The position numbers and the translations under genes are program-made. This document shows, in pieces, positions 2,022 through 62,309 of a stretch of 64,000 nucleotides of DNA (position 1 is the stretch's first letter; each line of letters begins with the position of its first letter). Source of the stretch: a virus (Duplodnaviria; Caudoviricetes); the IMG/VR virus record IMGVR_UViG_3300046490_000096, positions 17,161-81,160 of that record; one strand, written 5' to 3'. The notes under the pieces were generated by a model that worked only from the letters and a program-made list of their open reading frames with translations, searched no databases and was not told where the DNA came from.

Positions 2022-4240
2022 GGTTGGCCCTTCTGCGCCGCTGCGCCTGCGTCCTCTTTGAGCTGGGCACTCTTCTTGGCGTCCGCCGAGGTCTTTGCCG
2101 CCTTCTTCCCTGGCTTCTTGAGCTTACGCCGGTCGTTCATGTCCCGGCTTTCCTGGTTCATTCCGGACGGGTCGTTGTCGCTCATGAAGTTGACCAGCTC
2201 CATGGTAGCCGAGAATCCGCCGCTGGAGCCGTCTTCGGCCGAGCACTTCACCTTGATACTGCGAACGTAGAAGATGTCCGGAATCTTGGCCGCATTGTAG
2301 GCTCGCTGGATTCGCTGTACCACCAAGTCGATGGGAGCCGATGACGTGGCGGACATCGTGGACAGCCAGTTGCCCCAGCGTGATTGCTGCTGGCGAATCA
2401 GTGCCCCGATGTTGTTTCCCTTGGAACCGTAGAAGTCCGACAGCGTCGAGATGATGAGGTTGCCATCCTTCTGGCTGGCTACGGTCACGCGCACGGGAGT
2501 GCCCGCGCACAGGCGCATGATGTCGGGGTCGGCGTTCTCGTTCACCACTAGGTTCTGTCGCTCCAAGCTCGCCACCGGATCCATGTAGCTGGACAGGTCG
2601 TCGGTTTCGAGCTCGATGGAAAGCTCGGCCCGTGTGAGCTGGTGGTAGATGGCAACCGCCGCGTCCTCGAGCTGCTTGATCGTCCTCACCCCCTGAAGCA
2701 CGAACGTCCGGACGATGTCGACCTTGCCCCCACCCTTGCCGGTTTGCTTTCGCGCTTTTCCCGTGGGCTTCTTGGCGCCCTTGGCTGCGGAGTGGATGTC
2801 CTTGCCCGTCACCGGGAACCGCGCCTTCATCACACGCAACGCTGCGGAGGCGTCTGGGTTGTAGGCCCGCACCTCGACGGCGGTCGGCCGCGTGCGCCCC
2901 ATCTTGCGGGAGAGCTTCATCGACTTGATGTTGTGCCCCCACACCATGAAGCGGACATCGGATGTCCAGGCAGGGGCGTCGCCATCCTTGAACGAGCGAT
3001 TGAAGCGATCTCGCGAGCCGCCCTTCACGCGAATGTGGTCGTCCGTGATGTCGTCCAGAAACCCCTGTGGCGGAGTCAGCAAGTAGTAATTGCCAATGTC
3101 GTTCTTCGGGCCGAACGTGACCACGGTCTTCCCGCCGTCCATGGAGCCGGTGAGCGGTGGATCTTTGTCGGTGGTTACCGCCGACAGGGCCGGCTGGTAG
3201 AGCGGCATGCACCCGCACAGTTCGCACGCCTGCACGATGAGATCCAAGATGCTCATTCCGTCGGGCGTAACAGACTTCGGAGGCATTGAAGACTGGCCGT
3301 TCTGGGCGCTGTCTCCGATCCCCTCGGCGTCGACCTGAGTGCCTGGCTCCTCGGTTTGCGGAGGGGGCTCTTGCCCCGGCTGCGCGCCGTTGGACTGGTT
3401 GCGGCTCTTGGCGCTCTGGAGCGAGCGGAGCAGGTCTTTCCGTCCGAGCTTAGGCTCTGTCGCTGGGTCGGCGGCGAACCACACAGCCTTGAACGGATCC
3501 CCTCCAGCATCCCCCGAGGTGGGAGGGTACTGCGACAGGATGCGGTTGACGTAGGTCGTGAGGAACTCCTCGCTGCCCTTGGGCGAGTAGGCCGGCGCAT
3601 GCGGATTGATCTTCCCGTCGATGAGCGTCGCCTCATAGCTCCTGGCCTTGATATGGATCGAGGCTTCGTTGTCCGAGTGGCTCATCTCGGGCATGTCGAC
3701 GTAGCCGTTGAACCGGCGAATGCAGGTCTTCGATGGGTTGGGCTTCAGGTGCCAGTTGTCCGGCGTGCCGAACTCCTCTGCGCTCACCGTTCCAAGCCAA
3801 CCCTCAACCCGGCACTCTCGAATGATACGCGGGTCCAGAGGCATGTCGACGAAGGGGAAGGTTGCCGTGAGCACGTCCGCCTCTCGAAATCCGCGGTCTT
3901 CGATTTCGATCTCGCTGGGCACGGTGATGAACTGGATCGAAAACTCGTCGCCCTTCTTGCCGTCCACCGCTGCGCCTCTTGGCAGCCTGGCCTTCTGGGC
4001 CACGAGGTTGCGATTCGTCGCTCGGAGCTTCGCCGCGTACCCCATGGACGAAGTGAAGGCCGCTTCTTCCTCGGTGATCTGGTGTTCGTTCTTGGCGATC
4101 TGGGCGTCGATTTCTTTCGCCTTGGTGGCGTAGGGTTTGTCCCCGGTGTTTTCCGTGGAATCGTCGGCTGCACCGAAGTCCTCAAGTCGAACGTACAACT
4201 GCAAGAACCACGCGGGTCGGTAGTGTCTAGCCTCCGGCAT
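2018..4240 (-). CDS. Baseplate hub (gpD/gp44/gp27-like)
   Basis: 740 aa between tube initiator and spike. Features typical of hubs (IHIKARSYEATLID, SIKSMKLSRK, VRSIKVKCS...FSATMEL). Confidence 0.65.
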   Translation of the reverse strand: MPEARHYRPAWFLQLYVRLEDFGAADDSTENTGDKPYATKAKEIDAQIAKNEHQITEEEAAFTSSMGYAAKLRATNRNLVAQKARLPRGAAVDGKKGDEFSIQFITVPSEIEIEDRGFREADVLTATFPFVDMPLDPRIIRECRVEGWLGTVSAEEFGTPDNWHLKPNPSKTCIRRFNGYVDMPEMSHSDNEASIHIKARSYEATLIDGKINPHAPAYSPKGSEEFLTTYVNRILSQYPPTSGDAGGDPFKAVWFAADPATEPKLGRKDLLRSLQSAKSRNQSNGAQPGQEPPPQTEEPGTQVDAEGIGDSAQNGQSSMPPKSVTPDGMSILDLIVQACELCGCMPLYQPALSAVTTDKDPPLTGSMDGGKTVVTFGPKNDIGNYYLLTPPQGFLDDITDDHIRVKGGSRDRFNRSFKDGDAPAWTSDVRFMVWGHNIKSMKLSRKMGRTRPTAVEVRAYNPDASAALRVMKARFPVTGKDIHSAAKGAKKPTGKARKQTGKGGGKVDIVRTFVLQGVRTIKQLEDAAVAIYHQLTRAELSIELETDDLSSYMDPVASLERQNLVVNENADPDIMRLCAGTPVRVTVASQKDGNLIISTLSDFYGSKGNNIGALIRQQQSRWGNWLSTMSATSSAPIDLVVQRIQRAYNAAKIPDIFYVRSIKVKCSAEDGSSGGFSATMELVNFMSDNDPSGMNQESRDMNDRRKLKKPGKKAAKTSADAKKSAQLKEDAGAAAQKGQP

Positions 4241-13873: not shown

Positions 13874-14161
13874 CTAGGCGACCTCCTCAAGCTGAACCTT
13901 GGAACGCTTTAGAGCCTCGATGTCGTACCCAAGCGACGAGACGATGTGCCCCTGCTTGAGCGTGTAGTGCGCGCCACCGCGAGACACCTTGGCATCGGCC
14001 AGGACTCGGAACTTCTTCTCGGATGGAAGAGGTGGCGGTAGAGGCGCCTCGGGCGAGGCCTCGATCACGGGAGCAGCTTGCTCCTCCACCTTCGCGGACT
14101 CCGGTACTGGATCCGCCTTCCCGACTGAGATTGGTTCGTCTGTGATCCTGAATTTTGCCAT
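13874..14161 (-). CDS. Small head-associated hypothetical protein
   Basis: Pro-rich linker plus small C-terminal domain. First gene after the capsid gene and the structured RNA. Confidence 0.55.
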   Translation of the reverse strand: MAKFRITDEPISVGKADPVPESAKVEEQAAPVIEASPEAPLPPPLPSEKKFRVLADAKVSRGGAHYTLKQGHIVSSLGYDIEALKRSKVQLEEVA

Positions 14162-14176
14162 CTGCGTTTCCCCCTC

Positions 14177-14500
14177 AAAAAAAAACTGAAAGGCTGAAGT
14201 CCAGAAATTGACTACACAGACGAATCTGATAGTCGGACCAGGCGATTATCGCACGCCGGAGCGAGTATCTGGACTTCAGTTTTCAGCCCCACGAACACGA
14301 CCGGAAAGGTCCGAAGTCCCCCGGTACAGTTTGCGGGTAAACGGTCAACACAAGGTCGACCGGCTTTCACACGCCACGAATGGGTGTGAACCAAACGGGA
14401 CGAATCCCGATGGAATCTTTGCGTCGCCACGGCGCTCCCAGCACTGTAAGTGCCGGGAATCTTTCGATTACGCGCCGTGGCGATCGTCACAACTTGTGTC
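14177..14500 (-). ncRNA. Candidate structured non-coding RNA / complex terminator downstream of the major capsid gene
   Basis: Perfect 12-bp stem (14424-14435 with 14472-14483), four UUCG-capped hairpins, a GAAA hairpin, and a ~19-bp closing stem (14186-14205 with 14268-14286) followed by U9. Confidence 0.65.
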
Positions 14501-14503
14501 TTT
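14483..14503. promoter_or_regulatory. Motif C copy just after the capsid stop codon
   Basis: ATCGTCACAA-C-TTGTGTCTTT. Confidence 0.6.
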
Positions 14504-14507
14504 CGAT

Positions 14508-15875
14508 TTACGCCGAGCCGTGGCAGATCACGACCGCGCGCTTGTAGGCCGCGGCGCTGGACGTGGTGACGGAGTCGGTCGGGATCGGCCAGTCACCGGA
14601 GAACGACCAGGCCGCGCCCGTGGTCTGCTGGAGGCGGTCCAGAGGCGCACGGAGCACCAGGCGGATCCGCTCGGTCATGACCTGCACGCCGCCGTTGACG
14701 ACTGCGAACTCGCCGATCTTGCCTTGGATGCCGGCTTCCGAGATGTACCGGGACTCGTCGAGGTACTTCTCTTCGATGGCTCCCTGGCCAGTGATGATCG
14801 AGCGGTGGATGTTCACGCTGAGAGGATTCGAGAGCTCGAAGCCCGTGGTGTAGCCGTTGGCCGGATTCTCCGAAACCGTGGCGCTGTTGGGGGCCTCGGT
14901 ATTGCGGTAGAAGGTGACGCCCAAAAGGTACGCCATCGCAAACCGGCGATAGTGGATGTAGTCCGGCATGGAGCGGTTGAGGTTCTGGAACTCGGTGTCC
15001 GAGAACATCTGCGACTCGCTGATGGGGTCGCCGTGCCAGTGGTACGACCCATCCTCGTGCGGGGGAATGTTGTCGAAGCGCATCTGGGCAACCGCGGTAC
15101 GGATGTCGGCCAGGGTCTGCTGGGTCGTGGCCGTCACGTCATCGACGCGAGTGCCACCGCCCGAGAAGACGATGCGAGAACGGTTGGCCGCAAGAACAGC
15201 GGTGCGAGCCACAACGGCACCGACAGCAGTCCCGAGGGTCAGCGTACCGCCGTGGATTTCGTCGCCGGGAATCGTCGAGGTGAACCCGACAACCGTATTG
15301 GCCACGCCGCCGATGGTGATGGCCAGCGGGTTGGACGCGCTCACGGGCTGAGGGCGACCGTTGAAGATTTGCTTGGTGAATCCGCAGAGATTCACGACCG
15401 GGAGGGCCGAGCCGCCGCCGTACACCGTCGCCACCGTGTTGCCAGCCACGTAGCTGTTGAACAGCTTGTCGCGGACAACGCGATTGAGGGACTGACCAGC
15501 GTGTAGGCCGAGCTGGTGCATGTTCCGCAGGTAGGCCGACGCCAGCGTGACGTAGCTGGTGGGCATGTGGGTATCGATGGCCTTGCCCCACTGTTGAGCC
15601 GTGGCTTCCCACTGCTCGACCGCGTAGCTGGCGGGAGTCGGATCCACGCCGGGCTGCAGGGGCCGCGTCGAGGGCTCGATGAGCCCTGCGCGGGTGAACG
15701 TCTGGTTGGCGCCGAGGTTGACCGGCCACAACTCGCCGATCGCTTCCATGCGATACAGGAGGCGCGGGAAGGCCGCATCACGGAACACGCGCTGCAAAGT
15801 GCGGTCTTGCGCAATCGCAACGACCGAGGGATTGAACCCCGTCACGGTCAGGGAAGAATTAGGGAAGTTTGGCAT
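14508..15875 (-). CDS. Major capsid protein
   Basis: 455 aa, start MPNFPN with a GGAG RBS. HK97-fold-like features (LGANQTFTRAG, QWGKAID, HAGQSLNRVVRDKLF, LRAPLDRLQQ.....WSFSGDW). Follows the scaffold gene. Confidence 0.85.
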   Translation of the reverse strand: MPNFPNSSLTVTGFNPSVVAIAQDRTLQRVFRDAAFPRLLYRMEAIGELWPVNLGANQTFTRAGLIEPSTRPLQPGVDPTPASYAVEQWEATAQQWGKAIDTHMPTSYVTLASAYLRNMHQLGLHAGQSLNRVVRDKLFNSYVAGNTVATVYGGGSALPVVNLCGFTKQIFNGRPQPVSASNPLAITIGGVANTVVGFTSTIPGDEIHGGTLTLGTAVGAVVARTAVLAANRSRIVFSGGGTRVDDVTATTQQTLADIRTAVAQMRFDNIPPHEDGSYHWHGDPISESQMFSDTEFQNLNRSMPDYIHYRRFAMAYLLGVTFYRNTEAPNSATVSENPANGYTTGFELSNPLSVNIHRSIITGQGAIEEKYLDESRYISEAGIQGKIGEFAVVNGGVQVMTERIRLVLRAPLDRLQQTTGAAWSFSGDWPIPTDSVTTSSAAAYKRAVVICHGSA

Positions 15876-15968: not shown

Positions 15969-16739
15969 CTAGCTTCCGGGCTGCCATCCGGAGCGGCGGA
16001 GTCGGGCATTGAACTCCTCCGGCGTATCGTCATCGGCAGTCTTCTGTGGCGGAGTCGCACCCGGAACACTGGGCTTCGGGGTTTCCTCGCCGGGGGCTGC
16101 GGATTCTTTCGGAGCCGTTGTAGGGGGGACGACTACAGGAGGAACGACCGTGGTCGTCGCGGCGACGGTTGTCGTAGCGCCGAACAGGTGTGGTTTCGTC
16201 TCCTTGAGTCCGGCGAAGAATACGTCGGGATCCACTTCACCCGTGCCCTTGGCAACCTCGCGTGCAAAAAGCGTCACGGCGTAGTCGGTGTCGACGATGC
16301 CGGCTTTGGAGGCTGCGGCCGAGAGCTGGGCTTCGAACTGCTTGTTCTTGAGCCGCTTGACTTCCTTCTCGTGCTTCTTCTTCAGCGACTCGTTCTGGCC
16401 CTTGAGCTGGACGGCTTCCTCGCGAGCTTCCCTCACTTCCCTCTTGGCCTCTTCGAGCGCCTTGTCGACGGTCTTCTGTTCCGCCGACTTGTCTCCGCTC
16501 GCCGGTTGCGCTCCGCTCTTCTGGACGAGCGCCTTGGCTTCCTCGATGGTGCAGCCGAGCTGACGCTTGACCTCCATCGCGGCTTCTCGCTTCACCCTGT
16601 TCACGAACGCTTGGTGAGGCGGCTCGCGGAATTCCCCCTTGACCTTTGCGGGCTGCTGGGCCTGCACAGGCGGCACCACCGGGGGCGCGACTACTGGGGG
16701 TGTGACTTGGGTTTGCACTGTCGTGTTCTCGTCGGCCAT
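15969..16739 (-). CDS. Capsid scaffolding protein
   Basis: Pro/Val-rich ends, central coiled coil and DTDYAVTLF...FFAGLKETKPHLF motif, upstream of the capsid gene. Confidence 0.75.
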   Translation of the reverse strand: MADENTTVQTQVTPPVVAPPVVPPVQAQQPAKVKGEFREPPHQAFVNRVKREAAMEVKRQLGCTIEEAKALVQKSGAQPASGDKSAEQKTVDKALEEAKREVREAREEAVQLKGQNESLKKKHEKEVKRLKNKQFEAQLSAAASKAGIVDTDYAVTLFAREVAKGTGEVDPDVFFAGLKETKPHLFGATTTVAATTTVVPPVVVPPTTAPKESAAPGEETPKPSVPGATPPQKTADDDTPEEFNARLRRSGWQPGS

Positions 16740-21860: not shown

Positions 21861-22252
21861 TGAATCCCTCCGAATTCAGCGGCCACTCTCGGCCAGTTTG
21901 GTTCCTCGTTCTTGTCGTCCACAAATGCGTCCGCTTCCGGTTTCCCCGGATGCTGCCAGACCTCGTCGAACATCTCCCACAGCCCGAGCGCCCGCAGAAA
22001 ATACCGCATCTCGGCGAAGCGCTCCCACTGGTCTGTAATGCGCGGTGACACTTCCCCGGTCTGATACCAACGCGCCGCTTCCTCTTCCAGTTGCGGCGCT
22101 GGGTCTAAAGGCGTGCACCTGCAGGAGTGAAGCACGAGGTGATGCCCGGCCCTTTTGAGCGCTGCAAGGGCCTCAGCAGCGCCAAGGCGAAGCGCAAGGG
22201 GCCTACCGTGGGCCAGTGACCCATCGAAATCGAAGGCCAGTCGTAGGCTCAA
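21857..22252 (-). CDS. HAD-superfamily phosphatase-like protein
   Basis: Motif I AFDFDGSL, motif II LVLHSCR, motifs III/IV GKPEADAFVDDKN. Confidence 0.75.
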   Translation of the reverse strand: MSLRLAFDFDGSLAHGRPLALRLGAAEALAALKRAGHHLVLHSCRCTPLDPAPQLEEEAARWYQTGEVSPRITDQWERFAEMRYFLRALGLWEMFDEVWQHPGKPEADAFVDDKNEEPNWPRVAAEFGGIQ

Positions 22253-23958
22253 GGCTTGCCCCCATTGCCAGCTTGCGGCGTGGCAGGCTCTTTAGGCTTT
22301 GGCGCAACGGGTTGACCGGGTAGCTTTGGCTTGCCGGGTAGCTCGCCGTAACCCATCATGTCAAGCTCGTCTTTCTTCTGGGCGCGGATGGTTTCCAGAA
22401 GCTTCTTGGTGTCCTTGATTCCGAACAGTTGAGCGCCCCGGTTGACGGCGGTCTCCTCGTCGATGATGCCGCCTTCCTTCGCGGTGACGATGTTCGTGAT
22501 TTCGATCTGGCGGTCGGTCTCGGTCGGGGCGAAGTACGGGCCCCATGTGATCTTGATGTGCCCGCCCGGTCCCAGCTTGCGAGGCGTGCCGTCGGGACGA
22601 GGCGGAAGGTTGAGCTGGAAGACCGCGTCCACCTCTTTGCCCTTCTCGTTCAGGGCCTTGGTGGGCTTGCCGTCGAAGGCGCGAGCCATGAAGTCGATCA
22701 GCTCCAGAAGTCCGACCACGAGAATGTCCCCGTACTGCGCTCGCAAGTCGTCGGCAGCTTCGAGCATCGGAGCGTACAGGAACTCCATCGCCTTCGCCGA
22801 CTGCGCGGCGCCTGACATCTGCTCCGGGTCCAGCATCACGCAGCGAACGACCTTGAGAGCTTGTGCGATCTTCTTGTCCGCGTACACGCTGGCCGCCTGG
22901 ATTCCGGCCGCGCTGATTTCCATGTAGTGCGCGTCGCCCGTGGCCCCGACGTAGAGCGCATTCTCGGAGCCCTTGCGCACGCTTCCGCCCATCTGCGCGA
23001 CCTCTTTCGGGTCGGTGCGAATGACGGTGGTGGGGTCGCTGTTGCAGAGCAGGCCCTTGTTCGCCTGGGAATCCAGCCGGTCCACGGTATCGAAGATTTG
23101 CCAGACCCCGTGGCAGTCAGGGTCGCCGTCTTCGCTGTCGAGCACCTCGGAATTCTGGCACCAGATGCCAGGGAACCGCCCGAGCCCATGCACCCCCTGG
23201 GATTCAACTTCCCACTTCATGTCCACGTTGGGGCTGATTTTCACCGGCTTGAACACGGTATCGTCGTCTTCGGTGATGATCCGCCGGTAGAGGTACTCGA
23301 CCACACGCGTGCCCCGCTGGTTGCCCTTGTCGTCGATCTCGACCTCTTCCACCGGGTAGCGGTACAGCTTCAGAACCGCGAGCGGAGTCTGGGTCCGCTT
23401 GTCCTTCCAGAGCACCTGGCAGTGCTTGGTGTTGTGCACCTCAAGCGAAAACTTGCCATCCCGCAGGTGACACGTCACCAGCACGGTCCCCGTCCCGCCG
23501 CCCATGTTCCGGGCCGCGGTCATCTTAGAAAAGAAGCGCATCTGCTGCATGCATGCCTGCAGGTAGTCCTGCGTGTCCTCGTCGCCCTCGACCTCGACCA
23601 CCGGCCGGCGAGCCTGGGAGAACAGCAGTCCCGTGAAGCGCTTGTTGATGGCCATGCCGAGATTGAAGGGCGCCGTCGGCCGCTTCATGCGCACGGACAT
23701 GTTGATCGCCGGCTGCTCGAATCCCGCAGGAACCTGGACCGATGGGCTGATGGTCTCCATCTGGTCGGCGGTCATCCCCCACCAATCTTGCTTCAAATGA
23801 AGATAATGGGTGGTTCGCCAGACGGCCTCGTACCTGTCGAGCCGGCGGAAGCGCTCAGTCTCTCCGGTGATCGCGTTGGTGTAGAACCACTGCTTGACTT
23901 CCTCGCTGCGAGGAATCTGCATCTGCGGAGCGGGTCCGCCCGTGAGGGTGTCAGCCAT
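22249..23958 (-). CDS. Portal protein
   Basis: 569 aa. INKRFTGLLFS, wing-like beta region, HGLGRFPGIWCQN, SAAQSAKAMEFLY clip/crown region. Upstream of the gpF-like gene. Confidence 0.85.
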   Translation of the reverse strand: MADTLTGGPAPQMQIPRSEEVKQWFYTNAITGETERFRRLDRYEAVWRTTHYLHLKQDWWGMTADQMETISPSVQVPAGFEQPAINMSVRMKRPTAPFNLGMAINKRFTGLLFSQARRPVVEVEGDEDTQDYLQACMQQMRFFSKMTAARNMGGGTGTVLVTCHLRDGKFSLEVHNTKHCQVLWKDKRTQTPLAVLKLYRYPVEEVEIDDKGNQRGTRVVEYLYRRIITEDDDTVFKPVKISPNVDMKWEVESQGVHGLGRFPGIWCQNSEVLDSEDGDPDCHGVWQIFDTVDRLDSQANKGLLCNSDPTTVIRTDPKEVAQMGGSVRKGSENALYVGATGDAHYMEISAAGIQAASVYADKKIAQALKVVRCVMLDPEQMSGAAQSAKAMEFLYAPMLEAADDLRAQYGDILVVGLLELIDFMARAFDGKPTKALNEKGKEVDAVFQLNLPPRPDGTPRKLGPGGHIKITWGPYFAPTETDRQIEITNIVTAKEGGIIDEETAVNRGAQLFGIKDTKKLLETIRAQKKDELDMMGYGELPGKPKLPGQPVAPKPKEPATPQAGNGGKP

Positions 23959-37555: not shown

Positions 37556-37950
37556 GGTGTCACGTTCCCTTCTCGGTCGATGGTATCACGGCGGCGGACC
37601 TCCAAATTCCACAAAGCCTGCCAGCGCGCGACCTGCCCGGTCTGCCACTCGCGAAGCCGCTCCTTCTTCCACCCCTTGAACACTCCCGCGTTGGCGTGGA
37701 AGTCCATGTGGCACTTGTGGGCCATTGGCACACCCTGATCGTGCCCAGACTTCTTGCCCATGGCTCGGTTCTGTGTGTTGTGGTGCACCTCGACGGGACC
37801 GCACCCTCCCACGCGTGGGCAGCAACAGCGCTGCTTGTGCAGCCACTCAAGACGGAGCTTGTCTTCCGGCGCGATTGGCTTGGCCTTGCGCACCCGTCGC
37901 ATCGGCTTACGCCGGATTGGAGTCTTGCGTTTGAGTGGTGTTCGCTTCAT
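37552..37950 (-). CDS. HNH-fold / DUF968-like putative nuclease
   Basis: Basic MKRTPLKRKTP N-terminus; CCC...VEVHH...VPMAHKCHMDFH. Confidence 0.6.
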   Translation of the reverse strand: MKRTPLKRKTPIRRKPMRRVRKAKPIAPEDKLRLEWLHKQRCCCPRVGGCGPVEVHHNTQNRAMGKKSGHDQGVPMAHKCHMDFHANAGVFKGWKKERLREWQTGQVARWQALWNLEVRRRDTIDREGNVTP

Positions 37951-37963
37951 GTGATCCCCATTG

Positions 37964-38263
37964 TTAGCCCTCGCCCCAGCCCGCGCCACCGCCCTCGCCA
38001 GCGCCCCAGCCCGCGCCCTCGCCCTCGCCAGCGCCCTCGCCCGCGCCCTCGCCCTCGCCCGCGCCCTCGCCCGCGCCCGCGCCACCGCCCTCGCCAGCGC
38101 CCCAGCCCGCGCCAGCGCCCTCGCCAGCGCCCCAGCCCGCGCCCGCGCCACCGCCCCAGCCCGCGCCCTCGCCAGCGCCCCAGCCCGCGCCCGCGCCACC
38201 GCCCCAGCCCGCGCCCGCGCCACCGCCCTCGCCAGCGCCCGCGCCCGCGCCCCAGCCCGTCAC
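37964..38263 (-). repeat. (Gly-X)n repeat ORF built from GGC-NNN hexamers
   Basis: VTGWGAGAGAGEGGG...GWGEG*. The GTG start overlaps the upstream TGA. Confidence 0.7.
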
Positions 38264-38583
38264 TGCGTCACGAAACGAGCGAACGATTCCACAGCCTCCG
38301 CCGAGCACTCATGGATCGCCGCCACGTCCAGTAGGAGAGTCGACGCGATGGTGGCGCCGATCCTGGACTCCGCCATCCTCGGGCCACAGAGTCCGAAGGC
38401 TGCCAAACTCGTCACGCCGCCGGTCTTCCCGTGCCAATAGCGAATGTTCCGCGCCTCGTACAGACGCACGCTCTTGTTCTTGACCACCTCCGCATCGGTA
38501 GACTTGATGTGACCAAACCACAGCCCATAGCTCCCGTTACCTACGATGACCCACCTCTTCGCGATCTTCTTTGCCTTACTCAT
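38260..38583 (-). CDS. DUF6948-like phage protein
   Basis: GLWFGHI...VRLYEARNIRYWHG...SLAAFG...IHECSAEA. First gene after a motif-A promoter. Confidence 0.6.
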   Translation of the reverse strand: MSKAKKIAKRWVIVGNGSYGLWFGHIKSTDAEVVKNKSVRLYEARNIRYWHGKTGGVTSLAAFGLCGPRMAESRIGATIASTLLLDVAAIHECSAEAVESFARFVTQ

Positions 38584-38615
38584 GTTGTCCCTCTCAGTTG
38601 GATTTCGTTCCTTCT

Positions 38616-38649
38616 CCCCTGTATATGCGTCTCGCTCGAAACGGCTTCG
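38616..38649 (-). promoter_or_regulatory. Motif A promoter-like element
   Basis: CGAAGCCGTTTCGAGCGAGACGCATATACAGGGG. Confidence 0.75.
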
Positions 38650-38650
38650 A

Positions 38651-39085
38651 TCAAAATGGAACGTTTTCGTCCCCTGCTGGCGGCGCCTGCGACGACGTGT
38701 CGAAGTCGTTCCGAGGCACCTGGCTGCCGGTGTCGCGGTCTTTGCCGTTGCCGTTGGGCTTCCCCAGGAATACGACGCGTTCTGCGACCACGTCTGTCAC
38801 GTAGCGCTTGATGCCTTCCTTGTCCTCGTAGTTCCGGGTCTGCAATCGGCCCTCGACGTAGACCTGCTGCCCCTTCGTGAGATACTTGCCGCAGTTCTCG
38901 GCCGACTGGCCCCACACAGTTACGCGGATCCACTCCGTGCGCTCCTGCTTGGCTCCAGCCTTGTCCTTCCACTGTTCGTTGCAGGCCAGGCTAAGGTTGC
39001 ACACGGGCTGATTGCTTGCTGTGAACTTCAGCTCGGGGTCGGCTCCCAAATTCCCAATGCCGAGCCATTTATTGACGCTGCCCAT
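38651..39085 (-). CDS. ssb: Single-stranded DNA-binding protein
   Basis: VNKWLGIGNLGADPE, TEWIRVTVWG, KGQQVYVEGRLQTR and the acidic DENVPF tail. Confidence 0.95.
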   Translation of the reverse strand: MGSVNKWLGIGNLGADPELKFTASNQPVCNLSLACNEQWKDKAGAKQERTEWIRVTVWGQSAENCGKYLTKGQQVYVEGRLQTRNYEDKEGIKRYVTDVVAERVVFLGKPNGNGKDRDTGSQVPRNDFDTSSQAPPAGDENVPF

Positions 39086-42937: not shown

Positions 42938-42953
42938 TGCCTCTTTCCCCTCT

Positions 42954-42987
42954 CCCCTGTATATGCGTCTAGGCCGAAACGGCTTCG
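42954..42987 (-). promoter_or_regulatory. Motif A promoter-like element overlapping the TerL-ATPase stop
   Basis: CGAAGCCGTTTCGGCCTAGACGCATATACAGGGG. Confidence 0.75.
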
Positions 42988-43769
42988 ATCAAATCTGGGT
43001 AATCGTCTCCACCCCCGACCACGGTCTGTTCCACCTCCGTGCAGTCGTCGGAAATGCTCTGCCGCAAAGTGCACCACCGGGGCCGCTGCATGAGATGGTG
43101 AAGGGCGTCGTCTTGGTGCCACGTTGTGCCAATAGCAAGCATGTTCCCGTCCGGCTCCAAGCGGGAAAACCACGTCTCTTCCAGCAGCGAGAGCACCCTG
43201 CGCCGCTGGATTGGGTCCATGCTGTTCTTTTGGTCCACCACGTCATCTAGCAACTCGATATCTGCGCGTCCACCAATGCCCGTCGTGAAGATTCCGCGGG
43301 CCTGCACCGTTGGGTCGACCGCATGCCCCACGCGCTTCACGTAGAGTTCGTGCCCCGTCCACGCTCCGCCGCTCACCACGCCTGGGAACACCTGCCGATA
43401 GACCACGGACTCGAGAATGCGCTTCACAGCCCCCACCCGCTTGCTCGCCGAGTCGTCGTCGTTGGTGATGATCTTGATGCGCAGGTTCGGGTCTTGACCG
43501 ATCATGTAGGCGCATAGAGGTACAAGTAGGGAACTTGACTTCCCATGGCCGAAGGGCGCCAGCGTCATACATCTTAACTCACGAGTCCAACAGTAGTTCA
43601 GGTGCCGAATCCAGGACATGTGAATCGGGGCCAGCTTGATGCCGACGCCGTGATCGTCCTTCACGGCGAGCGCGATGAAGTTGGCCAAACTCGTGCGGGC
43701 CCGCGCCACCTTCGCGTTCCACAGGGCAGCGAGAGCGCGCGCGGGCGATGGCTTATGCTGTGGGGGCAT
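42969..43769 (-). CDS. terL: Terminase large subunit, N-terminal ATPase half (stand-alone gene)
   Basis: Walker A APFGHGKS, Walker B ADIELLDD, coupling motif IGTTWHQDD. Ends at a TAG before any nuclease domain. Confidence 0.85.
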   Translation of the reverse strand: MPPQHKPSPARALAALWNAKVARARTSLANFIALAVKDDHGVGIKLAPIHMSWIRHLNYCWTRELRCMTLAPFGHGKSSSLLVPLCAYMIGQDPNLRIKIITNDDDSASKRVGAVKRILESVVYRQVFPGVVSGGAWTGHELYVKRVGHAVDPTVQARGIFTTGIGGRADIELLDDVVDQKNSMDPIQRRRVLSLLEETWFSRLEPDGNMLAIGTTWHQDDALHHLMQRPRWCTLRQSISDDCTEVEQTVVGGGDDYPDLIEAVSA

Positions 43770-46812: not shown

Positions 46813-47342
46813 TAGCTCACCCTCCCGCTCTGTCTAGCCAGCCACCGCCAGAACGCGCGCTCCAACCGCAGCAGCTTTGCCACGTGCTTGTCCCAGCGCC
46901 AATTGCGACACTTGCCATCCTTGGAGTGGTACAGGTGCAGGCCGGCGGGAAAGGAACCGCATAGGGTTATCAGACCGGACAAGTGTCTGGCTCCGAGATG
47001 GGCGTTAATTGCCGGGTCCATCAGCTCCGCTGCCTCCAAGTGGTCCGGGTCCGCGCTTCTCCCTGGCATGATGCCGTACAATCCCGCGGCCCCCGTTGTG
47101 GCATTCACGCGGCCGGCGTGGCACCCGGACTCTGCGAACATCAGCAGAGCCAAGTGTGCTGCCGACGTGAGATGGTGACGGGACTCTGCGCGCACAAGGC
47201 CGGCCTCCGCTTCGTGGCCTGGACCGCAGAAGTATCGCACGGCTGCGTCGGACTGGTCAGCTCGGGCCGGAGCCACGAGGTAGAAGAGGGCGGCCCAGGC
47301 GAGTAGCACGATTCGCAGGATGGTCGAGCGCTTCGTTCCCAT
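46812..47342 (-). CDS. Lytic transglycosylase (SLT-like) with signal peptide
   Basis: FAESGC...GAAGLYGIMP...DPAINAHLGARHL. N-terminal hydrophobic segment ending APARA. The ATG directly follows motif A. Confidence 0.8.
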   Translation of the reverse strand: MGTKRSTILRIVLLAWAALFYLVAPARADQSDAAVRYFCGPGHEAEAGLVRAESRHHLTSAAHLALLMFAESGCHAGRVNATTGAAGLYGIMPGRSADPDHLEAAELMDPAINAHLGARHLSGLITLCGSFPAGLHLYHSKDGKCRNWRWDKHVAKLLRLERAFWRWLARQSGRVS

Positions 47343-47343
47343 A

Positions 47344-47377
47344 CCCCTGTATATGCTCCTACTCCCAAACGGCTTCA
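47344..47377 (-). promoter_or_regulatory. Motif A promoter-like element
   Basis: TGAAGCCGTTTGGGAGTAGGAGCATATACAGGGG. Confidence 0.75.
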
Positions 47378-48181
47378 GTTTTTCCCGAAGAGCTGCTCCA
47401 CATCGACGCTCGCCGGCAATTCCCCGGTCCTGGCAAACTCTTCCATCTGCTCCGGCGTGAGCTTCTTCCACGGGTCCTCGACCTTCACTTCCTTGCGTTC
47501 GGTCGGCTTGTCGTAGAGCAGGGATTCGATCTTCACGAGCAGGTCGGCCGCCTGCGCTGCCGTCCGGGCGTTGGCCAGGGCCTCGGTTCCGCTCATCGGG
47601 ATCCGGATGGCCGAGCCGTCCTTGGTGTACTCGATGCGGGCGAAGTCGACGCCCTCCCTCATCGTGTCGACCAGCTTCTTCACCGAGGCGAAGAGGGACG
47701 ACTTGATCCCGTTCACCACGATCAGGTTGTCCTTGCGGGCCTTCTCCCACTCGGTCAGCACTGTCCCGGCGATCTTTTCGGCCGCTATGCTCTCCGCGGT
47801 CTTTAGTGTCTCGTGCTCGAGCGCGAGCTGCGCTTCGAAGCTTGGCCAGTTCCGCAAAGGGTTCCCCTGCATCAGCTTCTTCGCCGTCTGGAAAGTCATC
47901 CCGTGCTTTCGCGCCAGCGTCATCACGTGCCTGGTCCCAGCCTTCCAGTCTAAGTACACGATCCAGCGCAGATCGTCGCTCACCCGTCGACCGTTCGCCT
48001 TGTGTGGTGAGTTCGCACGGGCCAGCCTTTCCGCTTCCGTGCGCTCGTACCTGGCGGCGCTTCGCCCCGGCAAACGGACGCCCTCGTCGGTGGAGGGATC
48101 CGTCGAGGGCGCCGCTTCTTCTACCCGGTCCGAGGAACCGGCCGAGTCACAAGTGGCTTCATCTGCTTTTTCGTCAATCAT
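47375..48181 (-). CDS. Putative terminase small subunit
   Basis: HTH-like region (LARKHGMTFQTAKK), helical oligomerisation segment, and C-terminal KPTERKEV...LTPEQMEE as in many TerS proteins. Confidence 0.55.
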   Translation of the reverse strand: MIDEKADEATCDSAGSSDRVEEAAPSTDPSTDEGVRLPGRSAARYERTEAERLARANSPHKANGRRVSDDLRWIVYLDWKAGTRHVMTLARKHGMTFQTAKKLMQGNPLRNWPSFEAQLALEHETLKTAESIAAEKIAGTVLTEWEKARKDNLIVVNGIKSSLFASVKKLVDTMREGVDFARIEYTKDGSAIRIPMSGTEALANARTAAQAADLLVKIESLLYDKPTERKEVKVEDPWKKLTPEQMEEFARTGELPASVDVEQLFGKN

Positions 48182-48413: not shown

Positions 48414-48434
48414 ATCGTCACAAGTTGTGACGAT
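48414..48434. promoter_or_regulatory. 21-bp perfect palindrome (motif C copy)
   Basis: ATCGTCACAA-G-TTGTGACGAT. Confidence 0.7.
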
Positions 48435-51724: not shown

Positions 51725-51758
51725 TACCTGTATATGCTCCTACCCCGAATCCGCTTCA
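51725..51758 (-). promoter_or_regulatory. Motif A promoter-like element
   Basis: TGAAGCGGATTCGGGGTAGGAGCATATACAGGTA, directly before the tRNA-like RNA. Confidence 0.7.
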
Positions 51759-52099
51759 CCTCTTCTGCAGTGGGAGCACTCCACGTCCCCGTCCGCCGCA
51801 ATGAGCACGATCATTCGTTCCCTTCCGCAGGTCCGGCACACCCTGTCGACCGGGAGCCCGCTTTGAATAGCCTCGACGTGGGCAGCCTCGAATGCCGCTA
51901 GCGCCTTGCCGGCGTTCGCATCCTTGTTCCCGGCCACGTAGGCCAGGGAATCCTTCTCAGCCTCTGCCGTGACCGCTTCGAGGGCAGGGGTTATCCTGCA
52001 CCCGTGGTGCCCGGCCAGCGAACAGAGGTGGTCAATGGCCTTCTTCCACGCGCGCGTCGTGTGGGCCTGGCGCTTGGCTTGGGCGGCGTCGGTCGTCAT
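51740..52099 (-). CDS. Hypothetical protein with C-terminal Zn ribbon
   Basis: CRTCG...CSHC; ATGA-coupled to the helicase. Confidence 0.55.
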   Translation of the reverse strand: MTTDAAQAKRQAHTTRAWKKAIDHLCSLAGHHGCRITPALEAVTAEAEKDSLAYVAGNKDANAGKALAAFEAAHVEAIQSGLPVDRVCRTCGRERMIVLIAADGDVECSHCRRGEADSG

Positions 52100-58164: not shown

Positions 58165-58198
58165 TCCCTGAATATGCTCTCGCCCTCAATTGGCTTCA
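58165..58198 (-). promoter_or_regulatory. Motif A promoter-like element overlapping the sigma-factor stop
   Basis: TGAAGCCAATTGAGGGCGAGAGCATATTCAGGGA. Confidence 0.65.
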
Positions 58199-58686
58199 GA
58201 ATTTCTCGCCATCTCGTGCAATTCCCGGATGGCCTTGCTCTTCCGTAGCCGCTGCATCGTGCGCCGGGCTTTCTGTCCCAAGATCCGCTCCTGCAGCCCG
58301 AGTTCCGCCGCCAACTCGGCCGTGCCCACCTCGTCGCCGTCGAGCCCCCATAGCCGCGACAGAAGCTTGCCCCCCTTGGAGCCCTCCACCTCCGCCCGCA
58401 CTCGCGCTGCCCACCACTCGCCCAGAGCTTCTAGGCGCTCCGGCATGCTCGCCCCGTGCTCTGACAGCTCCACGATCACGGGCGGATTGCGGCGAAGCTG
58501 ATACTGCATGCGGCGCATGGCAGTCCTGTACAGGTAGCCGTCCGGGTTGCCCTCGCGCAGTTTCGGAATGGCCATGAGCACCGCAACCGCCGCGTCTTGT
58601 TCCAGGTCCGCACGGTCCGGGTGGTTGCGTAGGTGGCAAGACCGCGAGGCGGCCTCGACTATCGAAACGATCTTCTCGGCGTCCAT
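58186..58686 (-). CDS. Phage-encoded sigma70-family (alternative) sigma factor
   Basis: Region-2-like ADLEQDAAVAVL...YLYRTA..RMQYQLR and region-4-like LWGLDGDEVGTAELAAELGL...Q..RRTMQRLR. Confidence 0.7.
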   Translation of the reverse strand: MDAEKIVSIVEAASRSCHLRNHPDRADLEQDAAVAVLMAIPKLREGNPDGYLYRTAMRRMQYQLRRNPPVIVELSEHGASMPERLEALGEWWAARVRAEVEGSKGGKLLSRLWGLDGDEVGTAELAAELGLQERILGQKARRTMQRLRKSKAIRELHEMARNSEAN

Positions 58687-62288: not shown

Positions 62289-62309
62289 AAAGACTCAAGT
62301 TGTGACGAT
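62289..62309. promoter_or_regulatory. Motif C copy
   Basis: AAAGACTCAA-G-TTGTGACGAT, nearly identical to the reverse complement of the 14483-14503 copy. Confidence 0.6.

Follow-up and report, generated by a model that had tools for sequence, protein, structure and literature searches.

What lies in the 346-nt gap behind the major capsid protein gene of a phage from an uncultured lineage, and what could it do there? The original prediction, made from a stretch of 64,000 nucleotides (here called the window), placed in this gap a structured RNA of about 320 nt that was rich in tetraloops. The window came from an 81-kb IMG/VR virus record with a G+C content of 62% and with nearly all of its genes on the minus strand. 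The genes and signals around the gap were as follows.

22249-23958, minus strand: portal gene
Between the portal and scaffold genes in the minus-strand gene order: head-morphogenesis gene
15969-16739, minus strand: scaffold gene (PF06810), upstream of the capsid gene
14508-15875, minus strand: major capsid protein gene (ATG at 15875, stop codon at 14508-14510), given as context and outside the RNA
14162-14507, minus strand: gap encoding the RNA, 346 nt from the capsid stop codon to the next ATG (14161)
14176-14170, minus strand: Shine-Dalgarno-like GAGGGGG ahead of the small gene
13874-14161, minus strand: small gene (ATG at 14161, 95 amino acids), which starts 15 nt past the U tract of the RNA

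The capsid protein matched PHROG 1357 (major head protein) and was 36% identical to the major capsid protein of Streptomyces phage Kromp (tblastn). Megablast and blastn searches of INPHARED identified no close DNA relatives among deposited phages, and the capsid homologues were distant only. When a capsid profile was run against 185,579 species genomes, no relative emerged that would indicate a prophage or a host, and the window contained no tRNA genes. The genes located beyond the 95-codon small gene were unannotated structural genes. In the predicted structure of the small-gene protein itself, the N-terminal half was disordered, and a small beta domain had a pLDDT of about 90. The protein had no match in Pfam, PHROG, or the PDB, and the idea that it is an RNA-binding protein was dropped because none of these collections provided a fold match.

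The RNA is about 330 nt long and reads on the same strand as the genes. All of the hairpins in the original prediction were present in the minus-strand sequence. The predicted extent, 14177-14503, was broadly right, but the RNA is slightly longer and runs from the capsid stop codon to the ATG at 14161. From its 5' edge to its 3' end, the RNA contains the following elements.

14481-14507, minus strand: P0, a 15-nt near-palindrome (14500-14486) with AT-rich flanks that forms a short hairpin at the 5' edge
14424-14483, minus strand: P1, a three-way junction with a perfect closing stem of 12 bp; the variable 5' module
14483-14472 paired with 14435-14424, minus strand: closing stem of P1, which encloses a 3-bp GAAA hairpin and a 9-bp hairpin
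14411-14423, minus strand: J, the conserved single-stranded motif CGCAAAGAUUCCA, which opens the conserved core
14409-14396, minus strand: P2, a hairpin with a UUCG cap
14390-14366, minus strand: P3, a hairpin with a UUCG cap
14362-14342, minus strand: P4, a hairpin
14287-14337, minus strand: P5, a bulged three-segment helix with an invariant UUCG cap (positions 1-57 of the covariance models R1 and R2 described below)
14186-14286, minus strand: P6, a 19-bp (7 + 12) closing stem around a conserved three-way junction
14259-14238, minus strand: P6a, a hairpin inside P6
14234-14210, minus strand: P6c, a hairpin inside P6 with an invariant UUCG loop
14177-14185, minus strand: U9 tract, which abuts the P6 stem and forms a terminator-like 3' end

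The conserved core therefore has the order J, P2 to P4, P5, and P6, followed by the U tract. The 9-bp hairpin in P1 contained one G-U pair, and the hairpin capped by GGAC-UUCG-GACC carried an internal A-A mismatch.

The gap folded more stably than expected from its composition. Specifically, the minimum free energy of 14162-14507 (minus strand) was -151.3 kcal/mol, compared to -114.7 +/- 6.0 kcal/mol for 100 dinucleotide shuffles (z = -6.14). The fold of the opposite strand was 15 kcal/mol worse, yet its z score was -5.5. The helices contained 56 G-U pairs versus 27 A-C pairs, which fits transcription of the gene strand, and the UUCG loops were invariant on one strand only. The original prediction also stated that no credible open reading frame (ORF) covered the region. 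A 92-codon ORF with a GTG start (14212-14490, minus strand) does span it, but this ORF was not credible as a gene: its GC3 value was 0.57 compared to 0.84 for the capsid gene, its product was of low complexity, and its start was not conserved. The overlapping ORFs as a set (92 codons in the window and about 100 codons in the relatives designated group B below) had GC3 values of 0.55 to 0.62 compared to the capsid value of 0.84, and the ORF starts differed among the window and two relatives, L004 and L005. The GC3 values and the nonconserved starts ruled out a protein-coding gene, and the gap region is noncoding.

The RNA did not belong to a known family. None of the 4,227 models in Rfam 15 matched any part of the window at its gathering score. 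When the threshold was relaxed to an E value of 10 or less for positions 13900-14800, the sole hit was IRES_L-myc, a chance match on the opposite strand and outside the RNA (13.7 bits versus a gathering score of 60). Introns, ribozymes, riboswitches, pRNA, GOLLD, ROOL, tmRNA, and the other Rfam families were ruled out in this way, and a full-text literature search found no description of the RNA. A 2023 catalog that lists about 10,000 candidates for structured RNAs among IMG/VR phages could include it (PMC10690425). The RNA is thus previously uncatalogued in Rfam 15 and is of the structured, terminator-ended leader or intercistronic type; its function, which is taken up below, we infer. The claim that this was an undescribed noncoding RNA held up, as the element was real, conserved, covarying, strand specific, and without a match in the Rfam search that the original prediction had proposed as a check.

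To find relatives, we used the capsid protein as an anchor and fetched 14 and then 41 + 24 related loci from IMG/VR and metagenomes; the family search covered these capsid-anchored loci. The closest relatives, L004 (93-94% capsid identity) and L005 (81%), carried the same RNA and together with the window formed group A. Seven loci (L008, L009, L012, L013, L019, L020, and L022) formed group B, which had the same layout as group A and no sequence similarity to it that was detectable by nhmmer. In a third set (L010, L011, and L007), the RNA differed again from those of groups A and B. The motif J was present in groups A, B, and C and in locus L018, and in relatives it reads CGCAAGUUC or CACAAGUUCC.

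In plain MAFFT alignments, RNAalifold predicted 111 pairs in group A, 18 of which had compensatory double changes, and 109 pairs in group B, 40 of which had such changes. P1 showed double compensatory changes relative to L004. P2 to P4 showed compensatory changes inside group A, and the counterpart hairpins in group B covaried too. We then built a covariance model, R1, from six group B sequences. This model covered the 3' domain only (P5 and P6; 163 positions and 56 pairs). Even though its seed held no group A sequence, R1 matched positions 14178-14339 (minus strand) of the window over the full model length with 57.6 bits (E value of about 2e-12). R1 also found 10 loci outside the seed group, namely, L004, L005, L010, L011, L038, L029, L033, L034, L007, and L006.

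The resulting 17-sequence alignment, A5, was aligned across groups by Infernal. Because A5 was fitted to the model, it favors the structure, and its values were read beside slid controls and independent MAFFT group alignments, both of which agreed with it: 89.8% of the cells were standard pairs, compared to 61.3% in column shuffles and 31-44% when partners were slid by 1 to 3 columns, and the covariation score was 0.725, compared to about 0.1 in the slid controls. Changes on both sides were found in 53 of the 56 pairs, including 17 of 18 in helices 1 to 3 (P5) and 36 of 38 in helices 4 to 8 (P6). A model rebuilt from A5, R2, added L036 and L024, scored the window copy at 113 bits, and found exactly one copy per genome in five genomes. 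In all, the family was carried by at least 20 distinct contigs from one clade of uncultured soil and peat phages. The original prediction had proposed covariation as its test and named a lack of conservation among relatives as the result that would speak against it; covariation was seen in group A, in group B, and in A5, and the RNA was conserved.

Searches for additional structure and additional members were negative. No tertiary helices or pseudoknots were found among the unpaired columns of A5, and no conserved alternative (antiterminator) fold of the nascent RNA was found. RNAalifold suggested that J sequesters the Shine-Dalgarno sequence in group B, and this pairing was rejected because, by eye, it was not conserved in groups A and C. 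A pattern scan with CTTCGGNCCTACC-N65-95-CTTCGG produced 22 viral matches and at least 120 genomic matches. Beyond the contigs of the capsid search, R2 recognized none of the 18 new viral loci and none of the 80 genomic loci that were screened, and the five viral matches that were viewed by eye were all in apparent coding sequence. Family members outside the capsid lineage were therefore not supported among the screened loci.

Conservation was distributed unevenly along the RNA. The core (14178-14419) was 97.1% identical to that of L004 and 85.1% identical to that of L005, compared to 79% and 68%, respectively, for third codon positions in the capsid gene. In contrast, the P0-P1 module (14420-14507) was 74% identical to L004 and 54% identical to L005, which was at or below the capsid third-codon-position identity. 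This module nevertheless stays a hairpin or junction through compensatory changes, and L004 and L005 keep a hairpin of different sequence at the P0 position. The UUCG loops of P5 and P6c were invariant in all 17 members of A5, and A38, G101, and A104 were invariant or nearly so. This pattern of substitutions points to strong purifying selection on the core.

Next to which gene does the RNA belong? In the window and 13 other loci, the small gene was on the same strand as the RNA and began 10 to 45 nt past its end; homology of the small gene was judged in a protein alignment, A6. The interval between the capsid gene and the RNA was less constant. ORFs were located there in L011, L012, L024, L029, and L036. 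In L006, L012, L024, and L036, a separate, simple terminator-like hairpin was located directly after the capsid gene and was followed by the RNA. In L006, a sigma-70-like promoter, TTGACA-17-TAGATT (10 of 12 positions), was located immediately before the RNA. L033 and L034 had, by eye, TTGACG and A2/T6 hexamers at a spacing of 17 to 18 nt, and their weak -10 hexamers were below the scan threshold. A consensus scan found no promoter before the RNA in the window, where a repeated palindrome (described below) is located instead. The interposed ORFs, the separate terminators, and the L006 promoter indicated that the RNA is not simply a terminator or 3' untranslated region (UTR) of the capsid gene. 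The RNA belongs to the downstream unit. Hence, the framing of the RNA as a capsid 3' element did not survive the comparison with relatives, and the statement that it is made at capsid-mRNA levels was unsupported as it stood, because the place that the RNA keeps in relatives is upstream of the small gene.

Two other promoter assignments were considered and rejected. J aligns by position with the TAGATT of L006 and was considered as a -10 box, but no -35 element was conserved with it, and J is inside the transcript in L033 and L034. A sigma-54 promoter in the P1b hairpin (GGCAC-N5-TGC) had a fitting spacing in the window only, not in L004 or the other palindrome copies, and was attributed to chance. 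As a separate observation, the ATG of the small gene in L010 (5620-5640) and L007 (5605-5630) was 3 to 10 nt past the U run, without a Shine-Dalgarno sequence; in these two loci, translation initiation may depend on the single-stranded RNA tail, which is rich in U and A.

The 3' end of the RNA resembled a terminator. The U9 tract was the longest T run on either strand of the 64-kb window, in which only three runs reached 6 or more. A U run of at least 4 followed P6 in all members, and a GC-rich basal stem followed by U6 to U7 was present in L010, L011, L024, L029, L034, and L038. In group B and L007, the U run was short and offset from the stem (CUACUUUU), which makes efficient termination in these loci doubtful. 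A GC-rich stem that leads directly into a U tract, as in an intrinsic terminator, was thus clear in the window and weak in group B and L007. The compact loop of an intrinsic terminator, which canonically has 3 to 8 nt, was missing; the P6 stem encloses a folded insert of about 60 to 100 nt, and a consensus terminator scan does not call P6 because this insert is far above the canonical loop size. P6 is an intrinsic-terminator-like hairpin in which the loop is replaced by a folded three-way junction.

Relatives that lack the RNA showed what else can occupy this slot. In a quick capsid tree, all of the RNA-bearing phages were in one clade of 30 rows, 20 of which had the RNA, and some of the rows scored as absent were truncated contigs (L017, L035, and L068) that may carry it. 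Of 26 relatives that lacked the RNA, about 11 had in the same slot a plain terminator-like hairpin with a perfect stem, and others looked similar by eye. More distant relatives (capsid identity below about 55%) had no structured RNA in the gap.

Taken with the position of the RNA, these features suggest a cis-acting leader or boundary element, ended by a terminator, that would step expression down from the capsid gene to the neck and tail genes. We favor this reading tentatively and give it somewhat less than an even chance. In the proposed mechanism, RNA polymerases would either enter from the capsid gene or start at the 5' edge of the RNA, and most of them would stop at P6 and the U tract. 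The fraction that reads through would reach the small gene and the tail genes, and it is this partial read-through past P6 by which the RNA would set the step-down. The array of stable UUCG-capped hairpins would shield the adjoining transcript end from exonucleases. Termination, read-through, and stabilization are what we infer from the P6 stem with its U run, the gene order, and the hairpin array. Among the three roles that were originally suggested, an attenuator fits best, a stabilizer is possible, and a virion or packaging RNA was unsupported.

Phage T7 provides the closest parallel for a step-down at this point. Its terminator T-phi immediately follows capsid gene 10, precedes tail genes 11 and 12, and is partially read through. 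The gene order is the same (portal, scaffold, major capsid, terminator, tail), and both elements combine a stem with a U run. In T7, partial read-through lowers the expression of downstream structural genes, and we propose the same here by analogy. However, T-phi is a single compact hairpin for the phage RNA polymerase, whereas the stem described here closes a conserved three-way-junction insert of about 100 nt and comes after P5 and 3 to 4 more hairpins.

The hairpins themselves have a precedent as well. A later paper, which cites Tuerk et al. (1988) and Gorski et al. (1985), states that CUUCGG hairpins often occur between phage genes, including those of T4, and that the mRNA of T4 gene 32 is stabilized by such a hairpin, located in its 5' leader (PMC8948821). 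Like the hairpins in the RNA, these C(UUCG)G hairpins are extra stable and are located on the transcribed strand between genes, and they have a documented role in mRNA stability. They are isolated, whereas those described here are part of a multidomain RNA of 250 to 330 nt in which two UUCG loops were invariant in 17 members.

The boundary element does not account for everything that was observed. The absence of a conserved antiterminator pairing was counted against it. The capsid genes of L006, L012, L024, and L036 are already followed by terminators of their own, and ending capsid transcripts would not require the RNA in these loci. Furthermore, a plain terminator does the job in relatives, which leaves the conserved P5, the P6 junction, the invariant UUCG loops, and J unexplained. 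Such a conserved core, about 250 nt long, keeps a gated attenuator or a released, trans-acting RNA conceivable. A broad version of this idea, in which the P6 junction and P5 are the sensor or binding platform of a new class of gated attenuators or a released RNA of about 250 to 300 nt acts in trans, strikes us as doubtful. If the element were gated, a phage protein, a host factor, or RNA polymerase would read the junction, and neck and tail expression would be timed.

The strongest single rival to the boundary element, although unlikely, is a factor-gated attenuator or antitermination checkpoint in which a phage or host factor binds to the P6 junction, to P5, or to both, or in which these elements act on RNA polymerase directly. 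Binding would decide whether the split-stem terminator forms, and neck and tail expression would be timed, not only scaled. The logic would be like that of the lambda late leader, which consists of the PR' promoter, the 194-nt 6S RNA, and terminator tR', which is read through by Q, or like that of HK022 putL and putR, which are cis-acting processive antitermination RNAs of about 70 nt with two stem-loops just downstream of the early promoters. With the lambda leader, the RNA would share a short, terminator-ended, noncoding transcript upstream of late structural genes and, in L006, a promoter-like element before it. On the other hand, the RNA is inside the structural module and not at its head, it is far more structured, it conserves structure rather than sequence, and it has no consensus promoter in the window. 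The put RNAs are a functional analogy only: they too are structured leader RNAs near terminators, and the RNA described here could act on polymerase as they do.

Several findings are consistent with such a gate. The promoter-like element of L006 and the TTGACG elements of L033 and L034 are located before the RNA, and the terminator-like end directly precedes essential structural genes. A passive hairpin would not need the degree of conservation that is seen in the junction and loop nucleotides, with the core more conserved than synonymous sites, and a repeated palindrome of the regulatory-site type is located at the 5' edge of the RNA in the window. However, no candidate factor was identified, and the alignments contained neither a conserved, mutually exclusive fold nor, in A5, a pseudoknot or tertiary helix. 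UUCG loops are usually structural elements rather than recognition elements, and a clear upstream promoter was present in one locus only and absent from the window in the consensus scan.

Less likely again is a discrete, stable RNA of about 250 to 300 nt that has its own start and terminator and acts in trans as a protein sponge or scaffold, in head assembly, or in the virion. The promoter-to-terminator layout in L006, and probably in L033 and L034, would suit this idea, as would the strong purifying selection on the core, the single copy per genome, and the very stable hairpins at both ends, which would lengthen the life of the RNA. The constant orientation and the distance of 10 to 45 nt from the same gene start suit a cis-acting element better, although synteny alone could explain them. 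In addition, about 10 members of the capsid clade lacked the RNA and had a hairpin or nothing instead, which makes an essential assembly RNA unlikely. The RNA is a phage-encoded, highly structured noncoding RNA, as are phi29 pRNA, GOLLD, and ROOL, but it differs from them in genomic position and size and in its absence from part of the clade, and it resembled neither phi29 pRNA nor any other Rfam family.

It is quite improbable that the RNA serves the capsid mRNA solely as a protective 3' UTR, in which a block of hairpins would stop 3' exonucleases and raise the capsid yield. Because the window and groups A and B had no terminator between the capsid gene and the RNA, capsid transcripts must enter the RNA there, and extraordinarily stable C(UUCG)G hairpins are known from phage intergenic regions. 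However, other ORFs separated the RNA from the capsid gene in five loci, a simple terminator already closed the capsid unit in four (both sets are listed above), and the capsid-near P0-P1 module was the least conserved part of the RNA, while P5 and P6 at the far end were the most conserved. Finally, the absence of any RNA element, with a small coding gene, a DNA site (origin or packaging), or a chance fold in GC-rich sequence in its place, would draw on the open frames of 92 and about 100 codons and on the well-folding opposite strand, but it is highly improbable in view of the low GC3, nonconserved starts, and low-complexity products of those frames, the compensatory substitutions, the one-strand invariance of the UUCG loops, the G-U excess in the helices, and the better fold of the sense strand.

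If the boundary reading holds, a large, well-supported family would join the few phage RNAs that are backed by strong comparative evidence. The family has an unusual design, with a conserved three-way junction as the terminator loop and an array of UUCG hairpins ahead of it, and it occupies the point at which a phage has to lower expression between the capsid and tail genes. It would provide an object of about 250 nt with 56 covarying pairs in P5 and P6, more in P2 to P4, and natural variants, with which the effect of structured inserts on intrinsic termination and mRNA stability could be tested in the phages of GC-rich soil bacteria and in the bacteria themselves. Its occurrence is limited to a single uncultured lineage, and the candidates for structured phage RNAs that have already been cataloged number in the thousands (PMC10690425).

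The slot downstream of the capsid gene appeared to be a hot spot in which other RNAs and homing-type ORFs adjoin. A sister clade of five phages carried UUCG-rich RNAs of 240 to 360 nt in the same gap that were unlike the RNA in the window (L025:1665-2028, L039:3851-4190, L040:3851-4116, L075:3863-4194, and L078:3863-4100). L025 had up to 11 TTCG motifs, and a GGGGUUA-type hairpin was common to L025, L075, and L078. With its filters off, R2 did not recognize L025 or L078 beyond single UUCG hairpins, and a default search gave L075 an E value of 1.9. These RNAs have either diverged very far from the family or arisen in this slot independently of it. In L018 (73% capsid identity), the 242-nt gap (3869-4110) held a simple terminator, a J-like motif (ACAAAGUUCC), and a long hairpin domain of another kind, and neither R1 nor R2 recognized it. 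ORFs with a CxxC...CxxC zinc-ribbon-like N terminus were located directly after the capsid gene or its terminator in relatives with or without the RNA (L011:2188-2367, L012:5454-6302, L024 at about 1670-2560, L035 from about 2220, and L051 from about 3950). They look like a mobile homing-type gene that uses the gap as an insertion hot spot.

The palindrome at the 5' edge of the RNA was one of four near-perfect copies of 15 to 23 bp in the window (repeat families D4 and D7), with the core GTCACAAGTTGTGAC, the extended arms GATCGTCACAA and TTGTGACGATC, and shared asymmetric flanks. The copies were as follows.

14486-14500, minus strand: first palindrome copy, in P0
28592-28606, minus strand: second palindrome copy
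48417-48431, minus strand: third palindrome copy
62292-62306, plus strand: fourth palindrome copy

All four copies were intergenic, each preceded the next gene of its own orientation by 100 to 325 nt, and copies 2 and 3 had about 60 further downstream bases in common. The palindrome resembles an operator or a site associated with the promoters of a single regulon. The motif was absent from the five related genomes that were searched, and the idea of a conserved operator was dropped for this reason. A second intergenic repeat, with the core CCTGTATATGC, recurred at a spacing of about 4.3 to 6.4 kb (38610-38656, 42948-42994, 47338-47384, 51727-51765, and 58167-58205), and none of its copies was near the capsid gene or the RNA. 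In addition, about 400 bp of imperfect 6-, 12-, and 18-nt tandem repeats (GCCCTCGCCAGCGCC-like) were located inside an ORF region at 37919-38325, which implied a low-complexity repeat protein.
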